From positions 16,493-80,492 of the forward strand of contig JAIPJX010000003.1 of assembly GCA_021733945.1 (NCBI GenBank): a stretch of DNA of 64,000 nucleotides, written 5' to 3'. Under the pieces are notes generated by a model that did not search any database, was not told the origin of the DNA, and saw nothing but the letters and a program-made list of their open reading frames with translations. Of this stretch, positions 38,106-64,000 are shown one piece after another. This stretch comes from Verrucomicrobiota bacterium (lineage in GTDB: Bacteria; Verrucomicrobiota; Verrucomicrobiia; Limisphaerales; SIBE01). The position numbers and the translations under genes were made by a program. Each line of letters starts with the position of its first letter. Position 1 is the stretch's first letter.

Positions 38106-39083
38106 ATGAAGACGAAGCAGGATTTGATCGAACGGGAGCCGGTCAACCCCGAAGTCAGGCCGGATTTGGCCACGCTCGCGGACCGTCCGGCGGCACCGGA
38201 CCTTCGGTGGCACGGTCCGCAATTGGCGTTGCTGGCGCTGGCCGTGATTGTTGGGTTCTCCCGGCCACTCCGTGATTTGCTGCGATTTGCGGGGCAGAGT
38301 GAGCTCTTCTCGCATGTTGCGCTGATCCCGTTCGTGAGTCTCTATCTGGCCTGGACGAGCCGGCACGAACCGATTCCGAGATCCCGGCCCCATCGGTTGC
38401 TGGCGCTGGGGCCTTTGATCGCCGGATGCGGCGTGCTTCTGGGGTATTGGCTGGCGATGCGCTCGGGATGGAAACCGGAAACCGCGGACTACCTGGCTGT
38501 CATGATGTTTGCGGCGTGGCTGTTCCTTGTGGCGGGAGTGCTTGTCTGGCTGGGAACCGGAGTCTGCCGCGCGCTGGCGTTTCCATTGGTTTTCCTTCTT
38601 TTCATGGTACCCTTCCCCGATTTTTTGACCCGTCTGTTTGAGAGTGGTCTGCAGCGGGGATCAGCCGACACCGCCCACGCGTTTTTCTGGATGTCCGGAA
38701 CGCCGGTGTTCCGGCAGGGCTTGGATTTCCAGCTGCCCGGGTTTGCGATGCAGGTGGCGCCCGAATGTAGCGGCATTCATTCCAGCCTCGCGTTGTTGAT
38801 CACCAGTGTTCTGGCGGGCCGCCTGTTTTTGAGCTCGCCGTGGAATCGAACCCTTCTGACATTGTTCGTCATTCCGCTGGGTCTGGTGCGAAATGGTTTC
38901 CGGATATTCGTCATTGGCGAGCTCTGTGTTCACTTCGGGCGCCATATGATCGATTCGGCAATCCACCGCCGGGGAGGGCCGGTGTTTTTCGCCCTGTCCC
39001 TCATCCCGTTTCTGCTTCTGCTGCTACTCCTGCGAAAATGGGAAGGGCGCCTGAACGGATCCAATCAGAAAGGCAATCCATGA
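38106..39083 (+). CDS. Exosortase (EpsH/Xrt family), stand-alone without EpsI domain
   Basis: Polytopic membrane protein with the family signatures FSHVALIPFVSLYLAW, catalytic-Cys motif VAPECSGIHSSLALL, Arg motif IPLGLVRNGFRIFVIG and downstream His (SAIHRRGG). Confidence 0.85.
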   Translation: MKTKQDLIEREPVNPEVRPDLATLADRPAAPDLRWHGPQLALLALAVIVGFSRPLRDLLRFAGQSELFSHVALIPFVSLYLAWTSRHEPIPRSRPHRLLALGPLIAGCGVLLGYWLAMRSGWKPETADYLAVMMFAAWLFLVAGVLVWLGTGVCRALAFPLVFLLFMVPFPDFLTRLFESGLQRGSADTAHAFFWMSGTPVFRQGLDFQLPGFAMQVAPECSGIHSSLALLITSVLAGRLFLSSPWNRTLLTLFVIPLGLVRNGFRIFVIGELCVHFGRHMIDSAIHRRGGPVFFALSLIPFLLLLLLLRKWEGRLNGSNQKGNP

Positions 39084-42367: not shown

Positions 42368-43549
42368 ATGAAACCTTCCAAAGTCTCCATGCATTGCTAT
42401 TCGATCCAGGAACTCGAGCCGGACTCGGAGGTGCCGATGTACGAGGTTGTCACAAGCCGAAACGAGGAGGATCCGGAGTGGGACGCGCTGGTGCTGAATT
42501 GCCCGGATCCGCATCACGAGCAGACGAGCCTGTGGGGCGCTGCGCAACGGATCAGAGGTTGGGAGGCGATGCGAATTCTTGTCAGAAGGAACGGTGGATT
42601 GGTCGGGGGAGTCCAAATATTGGAACGTGCGTTGGGCCGGTTCGTGCGAGTGGGCTATATCCATCGTGGTCCGCTGGCATCCATTGATGACGACAGACTG
42701 CGAGGGCGCCTGGTTCACGCGATCGGAGCCTATGCAAGGGCGAGACATCTGACTTATCTCTCGGTGGTTCTGCCTTACGGCGGTTCCCCCTGGGTGCCTC
42801 ACCTCAAGGCGCAGGCGTTCGGAATCAGTCACCCGTCGCTGCCCCCGAGAACCAGCATGAGGTCCACGATCGTCCTGGATCTGGAACCGGAACTCGATGA
42901 ACTCATGGCGGGAATGAGGCGCACGACTCGAACCCATGTTCGCCAGGGATCAAGACGCGGCCTGCATTTCAGGGAAGGTGAGCAGAGGGATCTGCAAACC
43001 TTTGAAACCCTGCTGGCAGCATTATGCCAACGCAGGGGAGTTTCTCCCAATATTCCAGGTGGAAATTTTCTTCAGGAACTTTGGAGGCGCTTCGCTCCTT
43101 CAGGGCATCTCAAGCTTTTTCTGACCGAGCAAAAGGGAGAACAAATTTCGGCGCTCCTGGCCTTCACCACCGGACATTGGTTCCGGGTATGGAGGGTCGG
43201 TTGGTCCGGAGAGCACGCCGGAATGCGTCCAAATCAATTGATGTATTGGGAAGCCATCAAGTGGGCCAGGTTGAATGGCTACAAATACTTCGAGAACTCC
43301 GGTTTTGACACGGATAATGCCAGGGCCATGGTCGAAGGACGGGATCTCTCCAAAAGTGTGTGGTGCGGGATGTCTTTCTTCAAGCTGGGTTTTGGCGGCA
43401 AGGTTTTGCCGCTCGATCCCGGCTATTGTTTTTTCAGCAATCCGGTCGTGCGTGCAGTGTTTCATCTGGCGAAGCCAAATGGATTCGCCTCTCGGATCGG
43501 AGAATTCCTTGTCGGCAAGGCGATGGCGCGATTCAGGCGCCGGAGATGA
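42368..43549 (+). CDS. FemAB-family (aminoacyl-tRNA-dependent transferase-like) protein, PEP-CTERM-associated, copy 1
   Basis: EWDALV......HEQTSLWG, ....RTHVRQGSRRGLHFREG and MRPNQLMYWEAIKWARLNGYKYFE. This is the double-GNAT FemAB layout. Confidence 0.75.
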   Translation: MKPSKVSMHCYSIQELEPDSEVPMYEVVTSRNEEDPEWDALVLNCPDPHHEQTSLWGAAQRIRGWEAMRILVRRNGGLVGGVQILERALGRFVRVGYIHRGPLASIDDDRLRGRLVHAIGAYARARHLTYLSVVLPYGGSPWVPHLKAQAFGISHPSLPPRTSMRSTIVLDLEPELDELMAGMRRTTRTHVRQGSRRGLHFREGEQRDLQTFETLLAALCQRRGVSPNIPGGNFLQELWRRFAPSGHLKLFLTEQKGEQISALLAFTTGHWFRVWRVGWSGEHAGMRPNQLMYWEAIKWARLNGYKYFENSGFDTDNARAMVEGRDLSKSVWCGMSFFKLGFGGKVLPLDPGYCFFSNPVVRAVFHLAKPNGFASRIGEFLVGKAMARFRRRR

Positions 43550-43598
43550 GAGGGGAGTATGGCGTAGCCGTCTTGATCGGAACAATTGCTCATCACCC

Positions 43599-44747
43599 AT
43601 GGATGCCATCATCCCGACATCGTCGCAATCGGGCGGGGCCGACCGCGCCGGACATCCGGGTGCCGGTTCGACCGCGATAGGCAGTGACGGGATCGAGGTC
43701 TGCTGGTCTTTCGACCCGGAGGACCGTCGTTGGGACGGGTTCCTGCAACAAGTGCCGCTGGGGCAGTTTCAGCAATCGAGTCTGTGGGCACAATACAAGG
43801 CAACCGAAGGATGGCAATCGCTCCGCTGTCTCCTGGTCAGGAAGGGCGGCTTGATTGGCGGCTTTCAGTTGCTATGGCGCCGTTCGCGCTGGGGGCGGAC
43901 TGCCTATGTCAGCAAGGGACCGGTCATGCTGGAGGAAACGCCGGAGACGTCTGAATTCGCCATTCGCCTGATCAGGCAAGCCGTCGAAGAACTCAAGATC
44001 ACCGCCGTGATCGTGCAACCGCCTGACTTCAGCAGGCACATGTCGGAAGCCCTTGCGCGGAATCAATTTGAGGCAAACCGGATTCGAAGCGTGATCAGCA
44101 CGACCTTGCTGGTCCATCTGAACCGTGGCATGGCAGAGGTGGAACGGGGGTTCAACCGAAACATGCGCACCCAGGTCCGTCAGGCCCGCCGCCGGGGCGT
44201 TGTCGTTCGGGAGGGTGACGAAAAGGATGTCGGCAACTTTTTCGCCATGATGAAATTGACGTGCGAAAGGCAGGGCGTGAAGCCGAATCCTTCATCGGAG
44301 CTTGAACTGGCGGCACTTTGGCGCGTGTTCCATGACGCCGGAGCATCCCGACTGACGATCGCGCGGTGTTCAGGCCAGGATGTGGCCGGGCAGCTTTGCC
44401 TTGCATTTGGTGATCGGATCACCCTGTGGAAGAATGGGTGGACCGGCCAATACGGAGAGTCTCACCCCAACCGGTTGATTGCCTGGGAAGGGATCGAGTG
44501 GGCATGCGCAAGAGGATTCAAAGTGTGGGATTGGGTGGCTCTGGATCCGGGCATTGCCGCGACACTCCTGGCGCGCCGTCCACTTGGTGAAAGGCAGAAG
44601 CAGAGCCAGCATTTCTTCCGGCTTTGTTTCGGTGGCGACCCGGTTCTGCTTCCCCCTTCGAAGATCTGGATTCGGCACCCAATCCTGAGGTTTGGGTGCC
44701 GCCTCTTCGGTCGTTTTTTGAAAACGCGAACCTTCCAGCGAGAATGA
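43599..44747 (+). CDS. FemAB-family protein, PEP-CTERM-associated, copy 2
   Basis: Paralogous layout to copy 1: WDGFLQQVPLGQFQQSSLWAQ, NMRTQVRQARRRGVVVREG and SHPNRLIAWEGIEWACARGFKVWD. ATG 43599 was chosen; the track start 43275 overlaps copy 1. Confidence 0.75.
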   Translation: MDAIIPTSSQSGGADRAGHPGAGSTAIGSDGIEVCWSFDPEDRRWDGFLQQVPLGQFQQSSLWAQYKATEGWQSLRCLLVRKGGLIGGFQLLWRRSRWGRTAYVSKGPVMLEETPETSEFAIRLIRQAVEELKITAVIVQPPDFSRHMSEALARNQFEANRIRSVISTTLLVHLNRGMAEVERGFNRNMRTQVRQARRRGVVVREGDEKDVGNFFAMMKLTCERQGVKPNPSSELELAALWRVFHDAGASRLTIARCSGQDVAGQLCLAFGDRITLWKNGWTGQYGESHPNRLIAWEGIEWACARGFKVWDWVALDPGIAATLLARRPLGERQKQSQHFFRLCFGGDPVLLPPSKIWIRHPILRFGCRLFGRFLKTRTFQRE

Positions 44748-44905: not shown

Positions 44906-47059
44906 ATGAATGGTTCGATGATTCTCGGTGTGTGCAGCGGCTTGTTGGCGGTCCTGCTGGCTTTGGCCGCCTTCTTTCGCACGCACTGGTCCGTGCCGCG
45001 GACCTGTTTTGTGGCGGGAATGGGGTTGCTGGCAGCGGATTCCATGCTCGGTGCATTGGCCGCCGATGCCTTGCGTCCGGATCAGGCTGTTGGCTGGGTG
45101 CGGTGGAAGCTCGTCACCCTGTCTCTGTTGCCGGCCGTTTGGCTGCCTTTCAGTTTGAGCTATGCGCGCGGGAGCGATCGTCAATGGTTTGCGCGGTGGC
45201 GGATCTGGCCGGCCCTGGTGTGCCTGGCTCCGATCGCCGTGAGTCTGCTGTTCTTCGGGAGGTTGCTTGGTCCGATCCTGCAGAAGGAGACGTTCGGCCA
45301 GTGGGCGGTGAGCCTGAATGCGCCCGGCCTTGCATTGAGCCTATTGGTTTTGGTCAGCGCCATCCTGATCCTGATGAATCTGGAGTTTACGTTTCGTGCG
45401 GCGGTGGGGACCATGCGATGGCGGATCAAGTTCATGATCCTGGGTGTCGGTTTGGTGTTTGTCGTCCATGCCTATACGTGCAGCGAAACCCTCTTGTTCC
45501 GCGCCGTGGATCTTTCGCTGCAAGGTGTCAACTCCGGCGCGCTCCTGCTCGGTTGCCTGCTGGTGGGGCGTTCGCTCATGCGCATGGGCCACTTCGAGGT
45601 CGATGTTTATCCCTCCCAGGCGGTTCTCCACAGCTCGCTCACCGTGTTGCTGGCGGGCGCCTATCTGATGGCTGTGGGGGTGTTTGCCAAGGGCGTCGCC
45701 GTTCTGGGCGGAGATTTTACGCTCCAAATCAGGGTGTTCCTCGGCTTGGTTTCGTTGGTGGTGCTGGCCATTCTCTTGCTGTCGGATCGGGTGCGGTTGC
45801 ATATCCGGCGCTTCATCAGCCGCCATTTTCAACGCCCTCAGTTCGACTATCGTACGTTGTGGAAAACTTTTACCGAGGGAACGGTGCGTCGATTGGAACA
45901 AACGGATTTGTGTAATGCGATCGTCAAGCTGATCTCGGCCACCTTTCAGACTCTTTCGGTCACGATCTGGCTCGTGGACGAACTGAAAGAAAGGCTGCTA
46001 TTCGGGGCTTCCACCTCGCTTTCTCCGGAAAGCGCCGGACGGTTCGTGGATGACACGGCGGCCGCGGCATCGGCAATCAAGGCATTGAGCGAGGGGCACC
46101 GACCGGTTGATCTCGATGGCGCGCGGGAAAGTTGGGCGGCGGTTATCCGGAGGTTGCACCCCGAGGAGTTTCGGAAGGGCGGGAACCGGCTTGCTGTTCC
46201 CCTGATGGCCGGCGAGGAACTTCTGGGTGTGATGTTGTTGGGAGACCGGGTGGGCGGGGTCTCGTTCTCGATGCAGGATCTGGATGTCCTCACCTCCATA
46301 GGCGAACAGGCGGCCGCCAGCCTGCTCAACATCCGTCTGTCCCAGAGCCTGGCTCATGCGAAACAACTCGAGGCGTTTCAGGCCATGTCCGCATTTTTTG
46401 TCCACGACCTGAAGAATGCGACCTCCACGCTCTCCCTCATGCTCAAGAATCTCCCGGTTCATTTTGCCGATCCCAATTTTCGGGAGGACGCGCTGCGCGG
46501 AATTGGCCGGACCGTCACCTACCTGAATGACCTCATAGACCGACTGGGTCTCATTCGGCGGGAACTGACCATCCAACCCGTCGCGTGCGACCTGAATGCG
46601 GTGGTCCTGGAGGCGTTAACCTGCCTCGACGGTGGACCCGAAATTGAATTGGTCAAGGAACTCCGGCCCTTGCCCAGGGTGATGGTGGACCCCGCACAAA
46701 TGCGGACCGTCGTGACGAATCTCGCCCTCAACGCCCGCGATGCGTCGGGGCTCGGCGGGCGGATCACCGTGAGCACCAGCCGCCAAAACAACCACGTCGT
46801 CCTTTCTTTCGCGGACAACGGGTGCGGGATGAGTCCGGAATTCGTGCGGGATTCCCTGTTCCGTCCATTTACGACCACGAAGAAGAACGGCATCGGCATC
46901 GGAATGTTTCAGTGCAGGATCATGGTTGAAGCCAATCGGGGCCGCATCGAGGTCGCCAGCCAGCCCGGCAAGGGCACCACCTTCCGAGTCCTGATCCCGG
47001 CCCACGGTAACTCTGAACTGAAGCCCCCGACAACAAGGCCACCCGCAAAAACGTCATAG
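44906..47059 (+). CDS. prsK: PEP-CTERM-system sensor histidine kinase
   Basis: About 300-aa multi-TM N-terminus, a GAF-like middle region, H-box FFVHDLKNATSTL and HATPase_c N/G boxes (NLALNARDA, DNGCGM, GIGIGMF, GKGTTF). Confidence 0.8.
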   Translation: MNGSMILGVCSGLLAVLLALAAFFRTHWSVPRTCFVAGMGLLAADSMLGALAADALRPDQAVGWVRWKLVTLSLLPAVWLPFSLSYARGSDRQWFARWRIWPALVCLAPIAVSLLFFGRLLGPILQKETFGQWAVSLNAPGLALSLLVLVSAILILMNLEFTFRAAVGTMRWRIKFMILGVGLVFVVHAYTCSETLLFRAVDLSLQGVNSGALLLGCLLVGRSLMRMGHFEVDVYPSQAVLHSSLTVLLAGAYLMAVGVFAKGVAVLGGDFTLQIRVFLGLVSLVVLAILLLSDRVRLHIRRFISRHFQRPQFDYRTLWKTFTEGTVRRLEQTDLCNAIVKLISATFQTLSVTIWLVDELKERLLFGASTSLSPESAGRFVDDTAAAASAIKALSEGHRPVDLDGARESWAAVIRRLHPEEFRKGGNRLAVPLMAGEELLGVMLLGDRVGGVSFSMQDLDVLTSIGEQAAASLLNIRLSQSLAHAKQLEAFQAMSAFFVHDLKNATSTLSLMLKNLPVHFADPNFREDALRGIGRTVTYLNDLIDRLGLIRRELTIQPVACDLNAVVLEALTCLDGGPEIELVKELRPLPRVMVDPAQMRTVVTNLALNARDASGLGGRITVSTSRQNNHVVLSFADNGCGMSPEFVRDSLFRPFTTTKKNGIGIGMFQCRIMVEANRGRIEVASQPGKGTTFRVLIPAHGNSELKPPTTRPPAKTS

Positions 47060-47088: not shown

Positions 47089-48441
47089 ATGAAATCCAAA
47101 CTCCTCATTGTTGACGACGACGAAGAAATCCGCACCCAGATGAAATGGGCCCTCAGTCAGGATTATGACGTGATCCTGGCAGGGGATCGGCCATCGGCGT
47201 GCCAGGCGTTCCGGTTACACCGGCCGCCGGTGGCGTTGCTTGACCTCGGTCTTCCACCCCAACCGGCCGGGACCCAGGAGGGATTCGCCGCCCTGGGCGA
47301 CATGCTGTCCGAGGACGGCCTGGCCAAGGTCATCATCCTTACCGGCCAGGGCGAAAGGAAGAACGCCCTCCAGGCAATCGGCTCGGGGGCGTTCGATTTG
47401 TTGACCAAACCTGTGGATTTGGAGGGGCTCAAAGTCATCCTGAGAAGGAGCTTTCACATCGCCGGATTGGAACGCGACCTCCGTGGATTGGATGAGCGTT
47501 CGCCGCAAAACACCTTTGAAGGCATGCTCGGCTCCAGCCGGCAGATGCGGGCCCTGTTTGGATCGATCGGCAAAGTCGCCGCGACCGATGCTCCCGTGTT
47601 GATTTTGGGTGAGAGTGGGACGGGTAAGGAGATGGCTGCCCTGGCGGTTCATCGTCGGAGTGCACGCAGGAACGGTCCCTTCGTGGCCATCAACTGCGGT
47701 GCCATTCCCGAAAACCTCCTGGAAAGTGAATTGTTCGGTCACGAAAAGGGTTCGTTCACCGGGGCCCACATCCAGCGCAAGGGGCTTTTCGAGTGCGCCA
47801 CCGGCGGCTCCCTGTTCCTGGATGAAATCGGGGAAATTCCCCTGGCGCTGCAGGTGAAGTTGCTGCGTTTCCTCCAGGAGCAATCCATCGAACGGGTCGG
47901 TGGCCGTCAGGCCATCGCGGTGGATGCGCGCGTCATCGCCGCGACGAACGCCGATCTTACCGAAGCGATCGGCAGCGGGCGATTCCGGGAGGATCTGTAC
48001 TACCGCCTCGCGGTCGTGGTGCTCCGCTTGCCGGCATTGCGGGATCGCGAGAATGATGTGTGTTTGCTCGCGCAGGAGTTCCTGCGGCGGTCGGCGGAAG
48101 AAGCAGGCAAGCCCGGGTTGGTTTTCGACCAGAACGCCCTGAAGGCGTTGAGCTGCCATCCCTGGCCGGGGAATGTCCGTGAGTTGGAGAATCGGATCCG
48201 ACGCTCGGTGATCATGGCCGACGGAAAACGCCTTTCGGACCGTGATCTTGAACTGGACAACCACTCCAAGGAAACATCGGTGGTCAGCCTCAAGGCGGCC
48301 CGCGAATCCGTGGAACGTGAGATCATCACCCAGGCTCTGCGCAAACACGCGGGCAACATCGCCGCGGCGGCGGCCGAGCTGGGAGTGAGCCGTCCCACGG
48401 TCTACGAATTGATGAACAAGCTTCGGATCACCAAGGGGTGA
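47089..48441 (+). CDS. prsR: Sigma54-dependent response regulator (NtrC family; PEP-CTERM-box regulator)
   Basis: Receiver domain (LLIVDDDEEI...ALLDLGLPP), AAA+ sigma54-interaction domain (ILGESGTGKE, GSFTGA = GAFTGA variant, LFLDEIGE, RFREDLYYRL) and a C-terminal Fis-type HTH (AAAELGVSRPTVYELMNKL). Confidence 0.9.
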   Translation: MKSKLLIVDDDEEIRTQMKWALSQDYDVILAGDRPSACQAFRLHRPPVALLDLGLPPQPAGTQEGFAALGDMLSEDGLAKVIILTGQGERKNALQAIGSGAFDLLTKPVDLEGLKVILRRSFHIAGLERDLRGLDERSPQNTFEGMLGSSRQMRALFGSIGKVAATDAPVLILGESGTGKEMAALAVHRRSARRNGPFVAINCGAIPENLLESELFGHEKGSFTGAHIQRKGLFECATGGSLFLDEIGEIPLALQVKLLRFLQEQSIERVGGRQAIAVDARVIAATNADLTEAIGSGRFREDLYYRLAVVVLRLPALRDRENDVCLLAQEFLRRSAEEAGKPGLVFDQNALKALSCHPWPGNVRELENRIRRSVIMADGKRLSDRDLELDNHSKETSVVSLKAARESVEREIITQALRKHAGNIAAAAAELGVSRPTVYELMNKLRITKG

Positions 48442-58072: not shown

Positions 58073-58855
58073 ATGCATTACATTAAACCGCTTCTAAAAT
58101 GGGTCGTCATGGCCGTGATGGTTGCAGCCACCAACGCCTGGGCGAATAATCTTCATATTGATCGCGTTTCGGGCTATTACGAGGGCATTGGCGGTGAATT
58201 CACGGTCACCCCAAATGATTTGGGTGACTTGAATGGCTCGGTGGCAGACTACCATCCGAAGGCGACTCATACCTACACGTCCGGTGGGTTGGCAGGAAGA
58301 ACAGGTATCCAAACCTTCTGCATCGAGTATCACGAGCATGTCAGCATCCCTGAAGACTATCATTATGACCTCGGGCCCAACGCCATCAAGGGTGGAACCT
58401 TGGCGGGCGATCCGGTTTCGGCTGGTGCTGGCTATCTTTACAATCGTTTCGCGCGGGGCATCCTTTCCGGTTACAACTACGTCGTCGGAACTGCTCGGAA
58501 AAATTCTGCCAATGACCTTCAGAAAGCCATTTGGTGGCTCGAAGGCGAATTGAGTTTGAGTGCGTCCATGATCGCGGCAAATCCGTTCCTCAATCAGGTC
58601 GCCTTGGTTTTTGGAAGTGCAACGGCAAGCAAGGCATCGTTCGCATTTGTGGGTTCGGAAATGGTCAGTGCGTCGTATTATGGCGTGGGAGCGATCAACA
58701 TGGGCCCGGATCCTCTTTATCCGAACCAGGATCAGCTTTATTGGAAGCGCCTCAACGACTCGCATGTACCGGAGGGGGCAGCCACACTGATTCTTATCGC
58801 CATGAGTATGACTGGCTTGACCTGGGTGCCAGGCAGGGCGCGGCGCGCTTCGTAA
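58073..58855 (+). CDS. PEP-CTERM (exosortase-sorted) secreted protein, paralogue 1; thioester-domain-like Cys/Gln motifs
   Basis: Signal peptide MHYIKPLLKWVVMAVMVAATNAWA. C-terminal sorting tail VPEGAATLILIAMSMTGLTWVPGRARRAS. Core is homologous to the 59501 gene. Motifs: FCIE (Cys83) and DLQKAIWWLEGE (Gln150). Confidence 0.85.
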   Translation: MHYIKPLLKWVVMAVMVAATNAWANNLHIDRVSGYYEGIGGEFTVTPNDLGDLNGSVADYHPKATHTYTSGGLAGRTGIQTFCIEYHEHVSIPEDYHYDLGPNAIKGGTLAGDPVSAGAGYLYNRFARGILSGYNYVVGTARKNSANDLQKAIWWLEGELSLSASMIAANPFLNQVALVFGSATASKASFAFVGSEMVSASYYGVGAINMGPDPLYPNQDQLYWKRLNDSHVPEGAATLILIAMSMTGLTWVPGRARRAS

Positions 58856-58878
58856 GGCAACTTCATCCAATCGAGTTC

Positions 58879-58917
58879 GGAAGGGCAGGGGCGACCCCCC
58901 TGCCTTTCCTTTTTTTT
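58879..58917 (+). terminator. Rho-independent terminator of paralogue 1
   Basis: GGAAGGGCAGGGG-cgacc-CCCCTGCCTTTCC (13-bp stem with one G-U) followed by T8 (58910-58917). Confidence 0.8.
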
Positions 58918-59418
58918 GTGTCGGAATATGAGGGGATTGGACGCAGGTCCGATGAGACGGTGTTTAAGATCCGTAGCAAGGCCCATTGCCAGATTTCGTA
59001 CACGGGTTCAATCCCATTCCACGCTTCCCACCCGGTCATAGACGAGGTTACGTCGGTGGGACGGTTGGAATCCATGCCCTGATTTTCGGCTGTTATGATT
59101 TCAAAAAGATCCCATCCGCGAGGTCCGCCGAGTAGGGTATCAGGCAGAGCGTTCGATAGAGGAGCGGGTTCTTCAAGAGTGTCGGGAATCTCAACACTCT
59201 GGCACCCTCACGGCGGGAATATCGCAATTCCTTATGGATAACATAGTTACACAGCTCCAATTCCTGATTCTTCCTGACAGGAGTTCTGATTCTGTCGAGC
59301 ATCCTTACAGTATTGAAGTCCTTATGCCATCAAAGTTGGTCCCGGAAAATAACGCGCCGAGTCGGAATGTGTTGGGAGTAATGTGTTTATAAAGCAACTC
59401 GATACTCCTCGAATCGTT

Positions 59419-59434
59419 TGGCACGGGCAAAGCT
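59419..59434 (+). promoter_or_regulatory. Candidate sigma54 -24/-12 promoter upstream of PEP-CTERM paralogue 2
   Basis: TGGCACG-GGCA-AAGCT: perfect -24 element TGGCACG and correct GG-N10-GC spacing, with a -12 of AAGC instead of TTGC. Lies 67-82 nt upstream of ATG 59501, which has a strong AAGGAG Shine-Dalgarno. A sigma54 activator (PrsR) is encoded 11 kb upstream. Confidence 0.5.
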
Positions 59435-59500
59435 TACACTCGCCAAGTAATGTGGTAGTGAATCAAGACGTGAATAATAAACAAATAAAGGAGTGTTTTC

Positions 59501-60271
59501 ATGAAATTGGTTAAATTAAAGTTGAGCGTTGTTGCGGTGGTTGGTTTGTCGGTGATGATGCCGCTTGCTGCCATGGGCAACACCGTTGATCTAAGGCGAT
59601 TCAATGGCTATTTCTCAGGAGATGGGGGGGAGTTCAGTATGAAACCCATTGATGGTCCGTTGACGGCGTATGTCAGTTCCTACAGCCCCAAGGCCACAAA
59701 AGTCAGTGGCGGAGCTACCTACATACAATCGTTTTGTCTGGAAACTCAGGAGAATGTCACGATTCCTGGGACCTATCACTACGACCTGAGCGATTCGGCG
59801 ATTAAAGGGGGTGCCGTTGTGTCTGATCCTGTTTCGTCCGGTGTTGGCTGGCTTTTCAGTCAGTTCGCGCGAGGCATTCTGAGCGGTTACAGCTATACTC
59901 CCGGCGCGGGTCGGGTGGCGTCGGCGAAAGATCTGCAAGATGCGATCTGGTATCTGGAAGCCGAGGATCTCACTGTGCCACTTACAAATCCGTTCCTGGT
60001 ATTGGTCGGTGGCAAGTTCACGGGTGGGATTGCGGGAGCTGCTTCAACCAGCGGTTTTTATATACCCTCTGGAGGTATTAAAAAGGCTGCGGATTTTGGT
60101 GTTGGCGCAGTCAATTTGGGAGATGCCCCCACCTATCCAGCCCAGGACCAGATATACTACAACAAACACGGAGATACGACCGTTCCCGATGGCGGTTCCA
60201 CTCTCGTGTTGCTGGGCATGGCATTTGTCTGCATAAACTCAGTGAGACGCCGGTTCTGTCTCGCTTCCTGA
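59501..60271 (+). CDS. PEP-CTERM (VPDSG-like tail) secreted protein, paralogue 2; thioester-domain-like Cys/Gln motifs
   Basis: AAGGAG SD 7 nt upstream. Signal peptide MKLVKLKLSVVAVVGLSVMMPLAAMG. Tail VPDGGSTLVLLGMAFVCINSVRRRF. Motifs: FCLE (Cys79) and DLQDAIWYLEAE (Gln146). Confidence 0.9.
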   Translation: MKLVKLKLSVVAVVGLSVMMPLAAMGNTVDLRRFNGYFSGDGGEFSMKPIDGPLTAYVSSYSPKATKVSGGATYIQSFCLETQENVTIPGTYHYDLSDSAIKGGAVVSDPVSSGVGWLFSQFARGILSGYSYTPGAGRVASAKDLQDAIWYLEAEDLTVPLTNPFLVLVGGKFTGGIAGAASTSGFYIPSGGIKKAADFGVGAVNLGDAPTYPAQDQIYYNKHGDTTVPDGGSTLVLLGMAFVCINSVRRRFCLAS

Positions 60272-60603: not shown

Positions 60604-63600
60604 ATGAAACGATATTGCAGAATGGGATTCGCTATCTTTGTCGCAGTGGGTTTGCTGTCGATTGTCGCGGAATTGCGATTTCGAACCCCGGTTGGTCCGA
60701 CTGAGGGTCAAACACTCGGTGGCTCCCGGCATTTCGCTGCTTCGGAAGCATCGGGGGGATTGAGGGTTGGGGACTCGGATCGGGCCCCTCGAGCCAATTC
60801 CGGCGAAATTCAGGTGGGCCGCTCCGATGTGCCGCGTCGGGACGTATTTGATGAATTCTCAGCGTGGATTGCCGATTACCGTGCGGTTGAGGGAACCGAG
60901 GCCGCAGGCAGTTTGATCGTGCGCGGCGAGTTGCTCGCGTCTGCCCGGCGCAACGCGCTGCGGGAGCTGATCGAGTCGGATCCGAAGGAGGCCCTGGCCC
61001 GCGCAGTGCCTGAGATTGTGCGGAGGGGTTTGCCGAGTGCGATCAGGAAGCGTCTTGAGGAGAGGGTCAACGGAAGGGGCGACTTTCGAGTCACGATCAG
61101 CTGCGACTATGGAGAGAAGAAACACATGGAGCGGGTGACTCGGGAGGCTTTGGTGGACGGGCGGCGCTATGCGGCGTTCGTTTATGGCGGGCAGCGGTAC
61201 CGGACGTCGCAAAACGACATCCCAATCGAGGGTATTGCCATTGATGAGGCGCTCGCAATCCGGGAGGACCGTGGATCGATCGCGGCGGTGGCGCAACGCT
61301 CGAACGAAACTGAAGTTCGGGGGCAGACTCCATGGGCGGGCGATGTCGGTGGGGGGGGCGGGAACGACGATCGATTGAGCGCTGCGGACAGCAGTCGCAC
61401 CCAGGGCACCAAGAGCGTGCTGTTTATGCGGGTGGCCTTTCCCGACGAGCTGTCGGAGCCGATCACCGAATCGGCCGCAAACGCGATGATGGATCAGATC
61501 AACCAGATCTTCTTGCAGTACTCTTACGGGACGACAGCCGTCATCAGCGACGTAACGCCGCTGTTGTTGTTGCCGACAACGATGGCGGGTTACAGCACCC
61601 TGTCGGTCGATACGCTGCAGAATGACGCTCGTGCGGCGGCGTTGGCGGCTGGTTACGACACCGACAATTACGACTTCGACATCGTCCGGAGCAAGACGAT
61701 ATCCGGAGCAAACTTCAATTTCACCGGGCGGGCGAACGTGGGCGGCAAGGGGTTGATGATCCAGGATTCGGCTGCGAACGTGGCTTTGTATGTGGCGGTG
61801 CATGAACTGGGGCATAACTACGGGCTCTGGCACGCAAACTCTTGGAGAGCCAGTGGCGACAGCGTCATCGGCCCGGGGAGTGTGCTTGAATACGGAAATA
61901 CCTTTGACACGATGGGATCAAAAAACTTCGATCCCTTGAGTTACCAATTCGGTTCCTGGTCCAAGTGGCACCTCCAGTGGCTGCCTTCCTCATTCGTGCA
62001 AACGATCAGCAGTTCCGGTGTGTATCGGATTTTCGCTTCTGATGTGTCCTATCTGATCGGCGGCCAGAAATATGCCTTCCGTGTGTACAAGGATTATGCA
62101 AGGGAATACTGGGGTGAATATCGCAGCAGGTTGATCAACAATTCCTGGGCCCAAAACGGTATCCTCCTCAACTGGACTCCGTTCAACAACTCGGTTGGAG
62201 ATAGTCTGAACAGTACGGTCCTGCTGGACACCACACCCGGGACACAGGCTGCGAGCGGCGGCAAGGAGGACGCCGCGGTCGTGATTGGTCGCACCTTCTC
62301 GGACGTGTCCGCCGGCATTCATATTACCCCGATCGCAAAGGGCGTATCCGGTTCCGACAAGTGGATCGATGTCCAGGTGAACCTGGGTGCGTTCTCCGGG
62401 AACAACCCGCCGACGCTGGCTCTGAGCTCCGACAGGACAAGTGTCCCGGCCGGCGCTTCCGTAACGTTGACCGCCGCGGCATCGGATGGCGACGGAGACT
62501 CACTCGCTTATGATTGGGACTTTGGCGACCAAACGTTTGGTGCCAATTCATCGACCGCCAGCAAGAGTTGGAGCGCGGCGGGCGAATACGTTGTCCGCTG
62601 CACCGTGAGTGACATGAAGGGGGGTAAGGCCAGCCGGAATCTGGTAGTTACCGTGGGATCTCCGGGGACCTACCGAGTGAGCGGACTGGTGAGTGTGAAT
62701 GGCCACGGTTTGCAGGGCGTGCGAATTCACAACGGCGGGAACGGATCCTCCTATCGCGGCACCTACACCGATGCTTCCGGAAATTTTACCCTGGCGAATC
62801 TCTCGTCGGGGTCCGTCACCTTGTCTGCGGAGAAGTACGGATACAGCCTCTCGGAATCGGGTTTCATAAACGGGTTTTCTGTCGGTCCCGACCGGACGGG
62901 TGCCAATTGGATTGCCACGCAGAAACCGGTTCTGGGCGTTGTGGCGGCCGATGCCTCGGCCGCGGAATCCGGTCCGGAGACGGGCACCTTCACGGTGACG
63001 CGATCCGGGTCCATGTCCGGACCCACCACCCTGCATTTTACTCTTTCCGGAGGCGCAGCCTATTCTGCGGACTATTTGCTGCTTCCGACTCCGGGTGGTG
63101 GTTCGCCCCATCAATTGACGATGGCGGATGGTGTGCCTGCGATGAACGTCGTGCTGACGCCGATCAACGATGGGGTCGCCGAAGGTCCGGAAAAGGTGAC
63201 GTTGACCATCGCCGAAAACCCGGCCTATGCCTTGGGGGCGTTTTCCGAAGCCACCATCACGATTGCGGACGAACAGGCTCCCGGGACGCCCACGGTTTCG
63301 GTTACCGCACTGGATGACGCTGCGGTGGAGTCCGGTTCGGACACGGGTGTCTTCAGGTTTGCAAGGAGCAACGTCGGGAGCGGAGACTTGTTGGTCAACT
63401 ACGCTGTCGGCGGCACTGCGATCAGTGGCGTCGATTACACCCCGCTGATCGGTTCAACGGTCATTCCGGCAGGCGCAACCGAAGTGGAGGTTCCCTTCAC
63501 TGCAATTGATGATGTTTTTGTGGAAGGAAACGAGTCCGTCACGGTCACGGTTTCGGCTGGCACCGGCTACACCCCTGGGTCTCTGTCCACAGCCACAGTC

Positions 63601-64000
63601 ACGATCGTGGACGATGACCCGCCTACGGTCACGATTGCAGCCACGGATGGTACCGCCGCCGAGCCCGGCAGCGCCGGGACATTCACGGTCACGCGCACGG
63701 GCAATCTGGCACCCGACCTCGTGGTGAGCTACACCATGGGTGGCACCGCAGTTTCGGGATTGGATTACACGGCGCTGCCTGGCAGCGTTTCAATCCTTGC
63801 TGGACGGTCCACGGCGAGCTTTTATCTCTCCCCCAGGGACGACAACCTGGTGGAGGGAAATGAAACGGCTGTGGCCGTCCTGAGCAGCAGCCCGATTTAC
63901 AACGTCGGTAATCCCGGCACGGCCTCCATCACCATCAGCGATGATGACGTTCCGAGCATCACTTTGAAAACACTGAGTCCGAGCACGGTCGACGAAGGCT
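60604..64000 (+). CDS. Giant secreted metzincin-like zinc metalloprotease with PKD, carboxypeptidase-regulatory-like and Calx-beta repeats (3' end outside window; absent from the supplied ORF track)
   Basis: My own translation of frame 1 from ATG 60604 (in-frame TGA at 60580) runs to nt 64000 without a stop. N-terminal anchor/signal MKRYCRMGFAIFVAVGLLSIVA. HEXXHXXGXXH motif VAVHELGHNYGLWHA at 61801-61833. PKD module (DGDGDSLAYDWDFGDQ...YVVRCTVSDMKGG). YRVSGLVSVNGHGLQGVRI...GNFTLANL. At least three Calx-beta units from about 62938 (GTFTVTR.G......V.Y..GGTA.SG.DY..L.G...I.AG......V....DD...EGNE.V.V.L), each ending in DDD. Confidence 0.85.
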   Translation, partial: MKRYCRMGFAIFVAVGLLSIVAELRFRTPVGPTEGQTLGGSRHFAASEASGGLRVGDSDRAPRANSGEIQVGRSDVPRRDVFDEFSAWIADYRAVEGTEAAGSLIVRGELLASARRNALRELIESDPKEALARAVPEIVRRGLPSAIRKRLEERVNGRGDFRVTISCDYGEKKHMERVTREALVDGRRYAAFVYGGQRYRTSQNDIPIEGIAIDEALAIREDRGSIAAVAQRSNETEVRGQTPWAGDVGGGGGNDDRLSAADSSRTQGTKSVLFMRVAFPDELSEPITESAANAMMDQINQIFLQYSYGTTAVISDVTPLLLLPTTMAGYSTLSVDTLQNDARAAALAAGYDTDNYDFDIVRSKTISGANFNFTGRANVGGKGLMIQDSAANVALYVAVHELGHNYGLWHANSWRASGDSVIGPGSVLEYGNTFDTMGSKNFDPLSYQFGSWSKWHLQWLPSSFVQTISSSGVYRIFASDVSYLIGGQKYAFRVYKDYAREYWGEYRSRLINNSWAQNGILLNWTPFNNSVGDSLNSTVLLDTTPGTQAASGGKEDAAVVIGRTFSDVSAGIHITPIAKGVSGSDKWIDVQVNLGAFSGNNPPTLALSSDRTSVPAGASVTLTAAASDGDGDSLAYDWDFGDQTFGANSSTASKSWSAAGEYVVRCTVSDMKGGKASRNLVVTVGSPGTYRVSGLVSVNGHGLQGVRIHNGGNGSSYRGTYTDASGNFTLANLSSGSVTLSAEKYGYSLSESGFINGFSVGPDRTGANWIATQKPVLGVVAADASAAESGPETGTFTVTRSGSMSGPTTLHFTLSGGAAYSADYLLLPTPGGGSPHQLTMADGVPAMNVVLTPINDGVAEGPEKVTLTIAENPAYALGAFSEATITIADEQAPGTPTVSVTALDDAAVESGSDTGVFRFARSNVGSGDLLVNYAVGGTAISGVDYTPLIGSTVIPAGATEVEVPFTAIDDVFVEGNESVTVTVSAGTGYTPGSLSTATVTIVDDDPPTVTIAATDGTAAEPGSAGTFTVTRTGNLAPDLVVSYTMGGTAVSGLDYTALPGSVSILAGRSTASFYLSPRDDNLVEGNETAVAVLSSSPIYNVGNPGTASITISDDDVPSITLKTLSPSTVDEG

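Follow-up and report, generated by a model that had tools for sequence, protein, structure and literature searches.

Two paralogous genes and their shared motifs

Two neighboring paralogous genes, here called A and B, were analyzed in a window of 64,000 nt from a Verrucomicrobiota bacterium (assembly GCA_021733945.1, contig JAIPJX010000003.1, positions 16,493 to 80,492 of the forward strand). All coordinates below are those of the window. Both genes encode small, presumably exported proteins whose core resembles the thioester domains (TEDs) of Gram-positive adhesins. Gene A (58073-58855, + strand; stop codon 58853-58855) encoded 260 amino acids (aa) and gene B (59501-60271, + strand; stop codon 60269-60271) encoded 256 aa, as read from the open reading frames (ORFs) and their translations. 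The two proteins were 43% identical (E 1e-65) and both N-termini were signal-peptide-like, in agreement with the shared core and the signal peptides of the original prediction, which had been made from the DNA letters alone. In A, the putative signal peptide (aa 1-24, 58073-58144) was followed by the TED-like core (aa 25-231, 58145-58765) and by a degenerate tail of apparent exosortase type (aa 232-260, 58766-58852). The corresponding parts of B were the putative signal peptide (approximately aa 1-26, 59501-59578), the TED-like core (aa 27-227, 59579-60181) and a VPDSG-CTERM tail (aa 228-256, 60182-60268), all on the + strand, as in A. The NCBI entry identical to B was named 'MAG: VPDSG-CTERM sorting domain-containing protein [Verrucomicrobia bacterium]'.

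Three motifs were shared by the two cores, F-C-[LIV]-E, L-Q-x-A-I-W-x-L-E and x-Q-D-x-L, and were predicted to lie on a strand, a helix and a strand, respectively. The candidate thioester Cys was Cys83 of A (codon TGC, 58319-58321, + strand), in IQTFCIE, and Cys79 of B (codon TGT, 59735-59737, + strand), in IQSFCLE. Cys83 was the only Cys of protein A, and the other Cys residues of B (positions 244 and 253) were both in the sorting tail. The helical motif was LQKAIWWLE in A (within DLQKAIWWLE; aa 149-157, 58517-58543, + strand), with Gln150 encoded by CAG at 58520-58522, and LQDAIWYLE in B (within DLQDAIWYLE; aa 145-153, 59933-59959, + strand), with Gln146 encoded by CAA at 59936-59938. A third Gln, which the original prediction did not contain, was Gln219 of A (codon 58727-58729), the first residue of Gln-Asp-Gln-Leu (QDQL, 58727-58738, + strand; context NQDQLYW), and Gln215 of B (codon 60143-60145), the first residue of Gln-Asp-Gln-Ile (QDQI, 60143-60154, + strand; context AQDQIYY). 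This strand Gln was exactly 136 residues from the Cys in both proteins, and the helix Gln was 67 residues from it in both. The ORFs, the Cys and Gln codons and the 67-residue spacing predicted earlier were all exact on re-examination.

TEDs have a [YFL]-C-hydrophobic-hydrophilic motif on a strand and a helical TQxx(hydrophobic)W motif (formerly TQxA(I/V)W), and their bond-forming Gln lies on a C-terminal β-strand, in a weak PhiQzPhiPhi motif (hydrophobic-Gln-hydrophilic-hydrophobic-hydrophobic) (Walden et al. 2015, PMC4450167). In solved TEDs, the Gln and Trp of the helix contribute no more than hydrogen bonds to the backbone of the Cys, and the thioester can form without them; in Cpa, it still forms when either residue is mutated (PMC4450167). 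The thioester pairs in solved TEDs are C109-Q261 in SfbI, C94-Q247 in PnTIE and C138-Q267 in CpTIE, which are 152, 153 and 129 residues apart. The Cys and the strand Gln are the only two fully conserved residues, and identity among TEDs of solved structure is as low as 12% (PMC4450167).

All three motifs of A and B had a counterpart in this scheme. The Cys motifs TFCIE and SFCLE fitted the TED pattern, with the Cys at the end of a strand in both structure models, and the 136-residue distance to the strand Gln was within the published range of 129-153. LQxAIWxLE corresponded to the TQxx(hydrophobic)W of the central helix in most class I TEDs, with Leu in place of Thr. Because solved TEDs bond through the Gln of the C-terminal strand and not through the helix Gln, the likely thioester pair is Cys83-Gln219 in A and Cys79-Gln215 in B; by analogy, Gln150 and Gln146 of the helical motif would support the Cys rather than form the bond. 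The helix Gln had originally been proposed as the thioester partner, an assignment that is revised here. The 67-residue spacing had also been considered too short for a TED, a concern that falls away because 67 is the distance to the helical motif. Two SfbI peptides that include its thioester Gln (DYQNLLSAEYVP and SIQHLLSAEFVP) resembled the QDQLVxVPEP of the protein family described below, although this likeness is anecdotal.

When 1.84 billion representative proteins were searched with a profile, A and B proved to belong to a large family: E ≤ 1e-30 was reached by 1,517 representative clusters and E ≤ 1e-3 by 5,126. The best matches listed were nearly all 210-300 aa long. Conservation was assessed, in B numbering, on a set of 259 members with lengths of 184-296 aa (median 240). 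Cys79, Gln146 and Gln215 were each present in all 259, far more than chance would produce. Glu81 and Asp109 were each found in 258, Gly43, Glu44 and Trp150 each in 257, and the Phe before the Cys in 256. After the strand Gln, Asp was found in 237 members, and Leu at the end of QDQ[LI] in 253. The Cys and the helix Gln, already described as invariant in A and B, were lost in none of these homologs. Two thirds of the members (170/259) had only one Cys in the core, so there is no conserved disulfide and a structural disulfide was excluded; a Cys-His hydrolase or dyad was also excluded, as no His was conserved among the 259 members. Approximately 20% of members had a second Cys five residues past the strand Gln (QDQLVC). 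Invariant positions that the published TED motifs do not account for were 42-45 (GGEF), 81, 84, 109, 153, 155, 205 and 216 of B, including several Asp or Glu and one Asn.

In a taxonomic scan of one genome per species, members were found in Verrucomicrobiota, Planctomycetota (Phycisphaerae, Pirellulales, Planctomycetaceae), Acidobacteriota, Desulfobacterota and Sulfuritalea. At least five diderm phyla were represented, and the three motifs were kept in all complete copies. One locus (CAZBIC010000045.1) came from a metagenome-assembled genome labeled 'uncultured Bifidobacterium sp.'. Although Bifidobacterium is a monoderm, the protein of this locus had a VPDGG exosortase tail; mis-binning or mislabeling is likely. 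The proteins were single-domain, with a PEP-CTERM or VPDSG tail at the C-terminus, and their public names were 'PEP-CTERM/VPDSG/VPLPA sorting domain-containing protein' or 'hypothetical'. No Pfam or NCBIfam model was found to cover the family core. Given the size of the family, thousands of such proteins would gain an annotation from a new domain model.

Structure models and profile comparisons

The AlphaFold model of B, built from a 14-sequence alignment, had a predicted local distance difference score (pLDDT) of 82.3, and that of the A core, built from 150 sequences, had a pLDDT of 93.1 and a predicted template-modeling score (pTM) of 0.91. In the B model, Cys79 ended strand 72-79, LQDAIW was within helix 136-152 and Gln215 was the first residue of strand 215-225. 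In the A model, Cys83 was at a strand end or β-bridge, LQKAIW was within helix 116-132 (trimmed numbering) and Gln219 opened the last strand. Both models had an N-terminal β part, a helical part and a C-terminal β part, a layout that parallels the subdomain boundaries given for CpTIE-TED. Mutual-information covariation paired position 220 with helix positions 120-124, which is only suggestive.

The models were compared with 350,542 PDB chains using Foldseek. TEDs occupied ranks 1-3 (5a0g, 5a0l and 5a0d) and rank 9 (5a0n) for model B (E 0.036-1.8, TM up to 0.47). For model A, they occupied ranks 1-5, 7, 9 and 17 (E 0.14-5.5, TM 0.27-0.43); the TEDs matched were 4c0z (Cpa N-terminal TED), 2xid, 2xi9 and 2xic (Cpa), 5a0n and 6fwv (BaTIE). 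No competing fold was found among the matches. These comparisons are no more than suggestive of a TED-like fold for the modeled core.

When 150 members were scanned at E ≤ 10, the Pfam TED model PF08341 was the only family other than the tails to be matched repeatedly (four members, best E 0.0052, below threshold). A bona fide member from Acidobacteriota (locus L046) matched it with 16.7 bits, residues 65-151 aligning to profile positions 2-89 of 102. A tandem paralog located beside a canonical member in Verrucomicrobiota (locus L038) matched it with 20.0 bits (cut-off 22; E 9e-4), residues 76-182 aligning to profile positions 2-97, and carried YCLD, LQVAIW, TQSLL and a VPDSG tail. Both alignments began two positions ahead of the Cys. 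By comparison, the TED of pLS20, which has experimental support, scored 23.6 bits on PF08341, and phmmer found no solved TED with it. Divergent tandem paralogs of this kind were observed in two Verrucomicrobiota metagenome-assembled genomes (L038:921-1720 and L036:3176-3915), with YCLD or FCID, LQVAIW and Q-S-L/Y. With the tails removed, the paralog group was linked to the family core by hhalign (90% probability, E 1.7e-6), whereas HMMER gave only 14-16 bits. By sequence, these paralogs seem to lie between the family and classical TEDs.

A sub-profile from the Cys to QxAIW matched SfbI-TED (5a0l) end to end (profile positions 3-88, chain residues 42-136; E 0.48); by arithmetic, this register would put the family Cys on Cys109. 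The best matches of B and of the full-length family profiles among PDB sequences, antibody light chains and insulin-degrading enzyme (E > 0.06), were judged spurious. Single divergent members retrieved no TED from the PDB sequences, the divergent paralogs matched an alignment of class II TEDs with an hhalign probability of 0.3%, and a protein search with the pLS20 TED returned a single match. The NCBIfam TQXA model (TIGR03934) was matched neither by A, B, the family consensus and divergent members nor by the pLS20 TED used as positive control, so this model does not discriminate here.

Sorting signals, locus and regulation

The tail of B was a significant VPDSG-CTERM signal (PF18205, 31.6 bits, cut-off 25; TIGR03778, 27.9 bits, cut-off 22). 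The tail of A (VPEGAATLILIAMSMTGLTWVPGRARRAS) had the three-part shape of such signals (VPEG, a hydrophobic stretch and RARR) and aligned with the family tails, and it matched no sorting-signal hidden Markov model (HMM) even at E ≤ 10. Exosortase tails had been proposed for both paralogs; the tail of B is of this type by HMM scores above the cut-offs, and that of A appears to be so from its shape and alignment. No comparable sorting tail was found elsewhere in the window. The presumed sorting enzyme for A and B is an exosortase of the EpsH family encoded at 38106-39083 (+ strand; PF09721, E 8e-46), so that an HMM-recognized substrate tail (in B) and an exosortase gene occur in the same genome. 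Among 150 members, PEP-CTERM was matched in 116 and VPDSG-CTERM in 63. The tail type varied by lineage (PEP-CTERM, VPDSG-CTERM, VPLPA-like or IPAPGA-type) and the core was constant, which identifies the core as a dedicated exosortase cargo.

The window was a typical locus for exosortase and exopolysaccharide (EPS), as had been proposed. It contained genes for a DegT aminotransferase, an asparagine synthase, two UDP-sugar dehydrogenases, an AMP-binding enzyme, the exosortase, a large TPR protein, two FemAB-like acyltransferases, a GAF-domain sensor kinase and a sigma-54 response regulator. The two adjacent FemAB/GNAT-like genes (42368-43549 and 43275-44747, overlapping as listed) were located between the TPR protein and the sensor kinase. 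Downstream were large NHL/Ig and Big_9/cadherin proteins, then A and B, and then an ORF with PKD, CarboxypepD_reg and Calx-beta domains (60604-64000, + strand; at least 1,132 aa), which started 330 nt past B and ran off the end of the window. GC content at third codon positions was 0.60 in A and 0.55 in B, compared with 0.70-0.75 in the surrounding genes, and the GC minimum of the window (0.518) was the 58-60 kb stretch. High expression or foreign origin could account for this low GC content.

A strong intrinsic terminator was found directly after A (58879-58919, + strand; a 13-bp stem with nine G-C pairs, followed by T8), which makes A and B separate transcription units. The intergenic sequence between this terminator and B was approximately 580 nt long and had 49% GC. 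A sigma-54-type -24/-12 site (TGGCACGGGCAAAGCT; 59419-59434, + strand) was located 82 nt upstream of the B ATG. The count of such patterns within the window alone was equal to chance. In the wider family, equally good sites preceded 13 of 51 genes, often at -75 to -93, compared with 3% of random 250-nt windows. This is an approximately 8-fold enrichment over random windows. Sites approximately 75-130 nt upstream were observed at loci L014, L015, L017, L021, L023, L038, L053 and L057; in L015, a perfect TGGCACGAGCATTGCT was located at -82, as far from the gene as the site of B. Upstream of the Planctomycetota copies, no site of this kind was found, and the region upstream of A had weak candidates only (best, 8 of 11 consensus positions).

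Candidate regulators of B were the PrsK-like GAF-domain sensor kinase (44906-47059, + strand) and the PrsR-like sigma-54-dependent response regulator (47089-48441, + strand). Of 46 related loci, 6 encoded a PrsR-like regulator at most 4 kb from a family gene, and a survey of neighboring genes in the related loci found no conserved partner other than PrsR/PrsK-like genes, present in a minority of loci. From these sequence features, expression of B is probably sigma-54-dependent, through the PrsK/PrsR-like pair of the locus. In Aquincola, the PEP-CTERM gene pepA is RpoN-dependent, and its overexpression turns soluble EPS into bound EPS (PMC9850573).

Interpretation and comparison with known systems

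The core of A and B is probably a distant relative of the TEDs. The evidence somewhat favors a thioester between the Cys and Gln219 (A) or Gln215 (B), with a role of the core in covalent adhesion or cross-linking. Taken together, A and B may be minimal, single-domain, TED-like members of a large family of thioester cross-linkers sorted by exosortase, a reading to which we assign a probability of approximately 0.58. The broader proposal is a first diderm family of thioester 'chemical harpoons', in which a minimal TED of approximately 200 aa, delivered by exosortase rather than sortase, would tie cells covalently to amine-bearing EPS, partner proteins or colonized surfaces; its chances appear evenly balanced. 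Such a family would comprise more than 1,500 clusters at 50% identity, from Verrucomicrobiota, Planctomycetota, Acidobacteriota, Desulfobacterota and some Proteobacteria.

According to the preferred reading, A and B would be exported by Sec, as their N-termini suggest. By homology with TEDs, folding would then create an internal thioester between Cys83 (A) or Cys79 (B) and Gln219 or Gln215 of the last strand, with loss of NH3, and the invariant Gln and Trp of LQxAIW would hold the Cys backbone as in solved TEDs. Following the PEP-CTERM model, the exosortase would recognize the tail (VPDGG or VPEG, hydrophobic stretch, Arg), resulting in release or attachment at the cell surface or in the EPS matrix. 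A primary amine (Lys of a partner protein, an amino sugar, aminoacylated EPS or a polyamine) would finally attack the thioester and leave an amide cross-link of cell, matrix or substrate. We speculate that the invariant acidic residues attract cationic amines, and that the amino-sugar and FemAB-like genes of the locus supply amine-bearing EPS; that the FemAB/GNAT-like genes aminoacylate EPS, and so create amine acceptors for the thioester, is pure speculation.

Several results weigh against the TED reading, and every link to TEDs was individually sub-significant. A and B do not formally belong to the Pfam TED families: no match at E ≤ 10 was found between A, B, the family consensus or the trimmed cores and PF08341 (TED) or PF20610 (TED_2), so that the Pfam part of the profile-HMM check suggested originally had a negative outcome for both proteins. 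Full-length family profiles (14 and 150 sequences) and phmmer searches with B retrieved no TED from the PDB sequences, and the 5a0l match was not reproduced with other sub-profiles (the N-terminal part, or divergent members only). Against a 13-sequence alignment of class II TEDs (from pLS20-like plasmid genes), the family reached an hhalign probability of approximately 1%. The best TED matches by Foldseek were also sub-significant (E 0.036-0.5, TM 0.36-0.47, root-mean-square deviation 6-9 Å), and covariation is silent on the Cys and the Gln because both are invariant. The Thr of the TED helix motif was Leu in 255 of 259 members, a substitution that had already been pointed out for A and B. The invariant GGEF, D109, E153, E155 and N205 have no known TED counterpart and could reflect a different chemistry.

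Distant homology is nevertheless the best reading, because many weak signals were concordant. The proposed resemblance to TEDs is therefore retained in part: TEDs were the top PDB matches for both models, PF08341 was recurrent and the L038 paralog reached 20.0 bits, but A and B themselves were below all HMM thresholds and the structural scores were below significance. That the likeness of motifs arose by chance or convergence, on a fold unrelated to TEDs and with the Cys and Gln in some other function, is a distinctly unlikely explanation. It would account for the lack of any conventionally significant test, but TEDs are a few dozen of the 350,542 PDB chains and yet filled the top ranks for two models, and PF08341, one of 24,736 Pfam models, was yet matched recurrently in the same register. 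Motif order, secondary structure and spacing also all agreed with TEDs.

The nature of the chemistry admits two other explanations. In one, which we consider unlikely, the core is TED-derived or TED-like but forms no thioester, and instead offers a non-covalent ligand pocket (for an EPS sugar or a cation) as a matrix component in the style proposed for PepA; in a variant, the Cys has a different chemical role, for example in metal binding or in a disulfide between molecules. Partial structural similarity to TEDs, the many invariant acidic residues and GGEF outside the published TED motifs, and weak matches of some members to NCBIfam floc_PepA that extend past the tail (no more than 38 bits) are all consistent with it, as is the report that PepA raises bound EPS, with no covalent chemistry described (PMC9850573). 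The floc_PepA scores were, however, far under the cut-off of 80, a lone, invariant, unpaired Cys would be unusual for a plain binding site in an exported protein, and the invariance across five phyla of the Cys and the strand Gln, the only fully conserved pair of TEDs, is hard to explain without a thioester. The pairing first proposed, a thioester between the Cys and the helix Gln (Gln150 in A, Gln146 in B) in an unusually compact TED, is very improbable. The helix Gln is as invariant as the strand Gln, and its side chain is probably near the Cys, given that the equivalent side chain adjoins the thioester Cys in solved TEDs. Every solved TED nevertheless bonds through the C-terminal strand Gln, Cpa mutants of the helix Gln or Trp still form the bond (PMC4450167), and the family keeps a fully conserved strand Gln at the canonical distance.

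To our knowledge, PEP-CTERM/exosortase cargo has been without a molecular function since it was defined. If the thioester reading is correct, covalent adhesion chemistry reaches major environmental phyla of diderms, and exosortase cargo gains a testable mechanism for binding matrix or targets, with a function for a large PEP-CTERM class. It would also provide a molecular basis for the tight binding of EPS in flocs and aggregates, and a very small natural TED of possible use as a protein-ligation module. Genetics ties PEP-CTERM cargo to floc formation and EPS retention (PMC9850573). In 2015, TEDs were stated to occur in Gram-positive surface proteins alone, as far as described (PMC4450167), and a 2026 preprint confines them to Firmicutes and Actinobacteria. 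In the full-text literature, we found no paper that ties TEDs to PEP-CTERM or exosortase or that places TEDs in Gram-negative bacteria, consistent with the initial impression that a TED sorted by exosortase in diderms had not been described.

Compared with class I TEDs (SfbI-TED 5A0L, CpTIE-TED 5A0G, PnTIE-TED 5A0N, Cpa 2XI9/4C0Z; PF08341), the family has the same motif order and secondary-structure context. The Cys-Gln spacing (136, compared with 129-153), the β/helical/β layout, the domain size of approximately 180-210 aa and the location at the N-terminus of a secreted protein whose C-terminus is read by a sorting enzyme are also alike. Unlike class I TEDs, the family is below all HMM cut-offs, has TM < 0.5, has Leu for the Thr before the helix Gln and carries the additional invariant GGEF, several Asp or Glu and an Asn. 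It has a VPDSG or PEP-CTERM exosortase tail rather than LPXTG, and neither a stalk, isopeptide or ester domains nor fibronectin-binding repeats, so that it does not correspond to Gram-positive surface proteins of the TIE type (LPXTG plus an isopeptide/ester stalk). Its hosts belong to environmental diderm phyla, not to Firmicutes or Actinobacteria. Class II TEDs (BaTIE 6FWV; the TIE-pLS20 conjugation adhesin) share the FC(I/V)(D/E) motif and the Gln of the C-terminal xQxL, but lack the TQxAIW helix motif and have a β-sandwich insertion.

Substrates of the PEP-CTERM/VPDSG-CTERM type, including PepA (NF033554), are similar to the family in their signal peptide and C-terminal sorting tail, and in the setting of their genes, an exosortase/EPS locus that also includes genes for a TPR protein, FemAB-like proteins and a PrsK/PrsR-like pair. 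The sigma-54-type promoter is another likeness, demonstrated for pepA (PMC9850573). The family core, in contrast, fits no named PEP-CTERM subfamily, and one quoted PepA peptide shows no likeness to the N-terminal region of the family (PMC9850573). When ten members were scanned singly with floc_PepA (NF033554), the best score was approximately 38 bits (cut-off 80) and many matches were confined to the tail. Matches of P0016, P0018, P0021 and P0022 covered profile positions 94-260, past the tail, with 27-38 bits; a remote relation of PepA to the helical and C-terminal half of the family is possible from these alignments.

Complement C3 and alpha-2-macroglobulin (GCGEQ) would be similar, if the bond forms, in having a Cys-Gln thioester that captures nucleophiles. 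They differ in the fold, an unrelated helical domain in which a single loop bears both the Cys and, three residues on, the Gln, and in their proteolytic activation; the likeness is convergence, not homology (see also PMC4450167). Judged from the sequences, the elements that would be new in A, B and their relatives are the sorting system that goes with the TED-like core, the stalkless architecture and the phyla.

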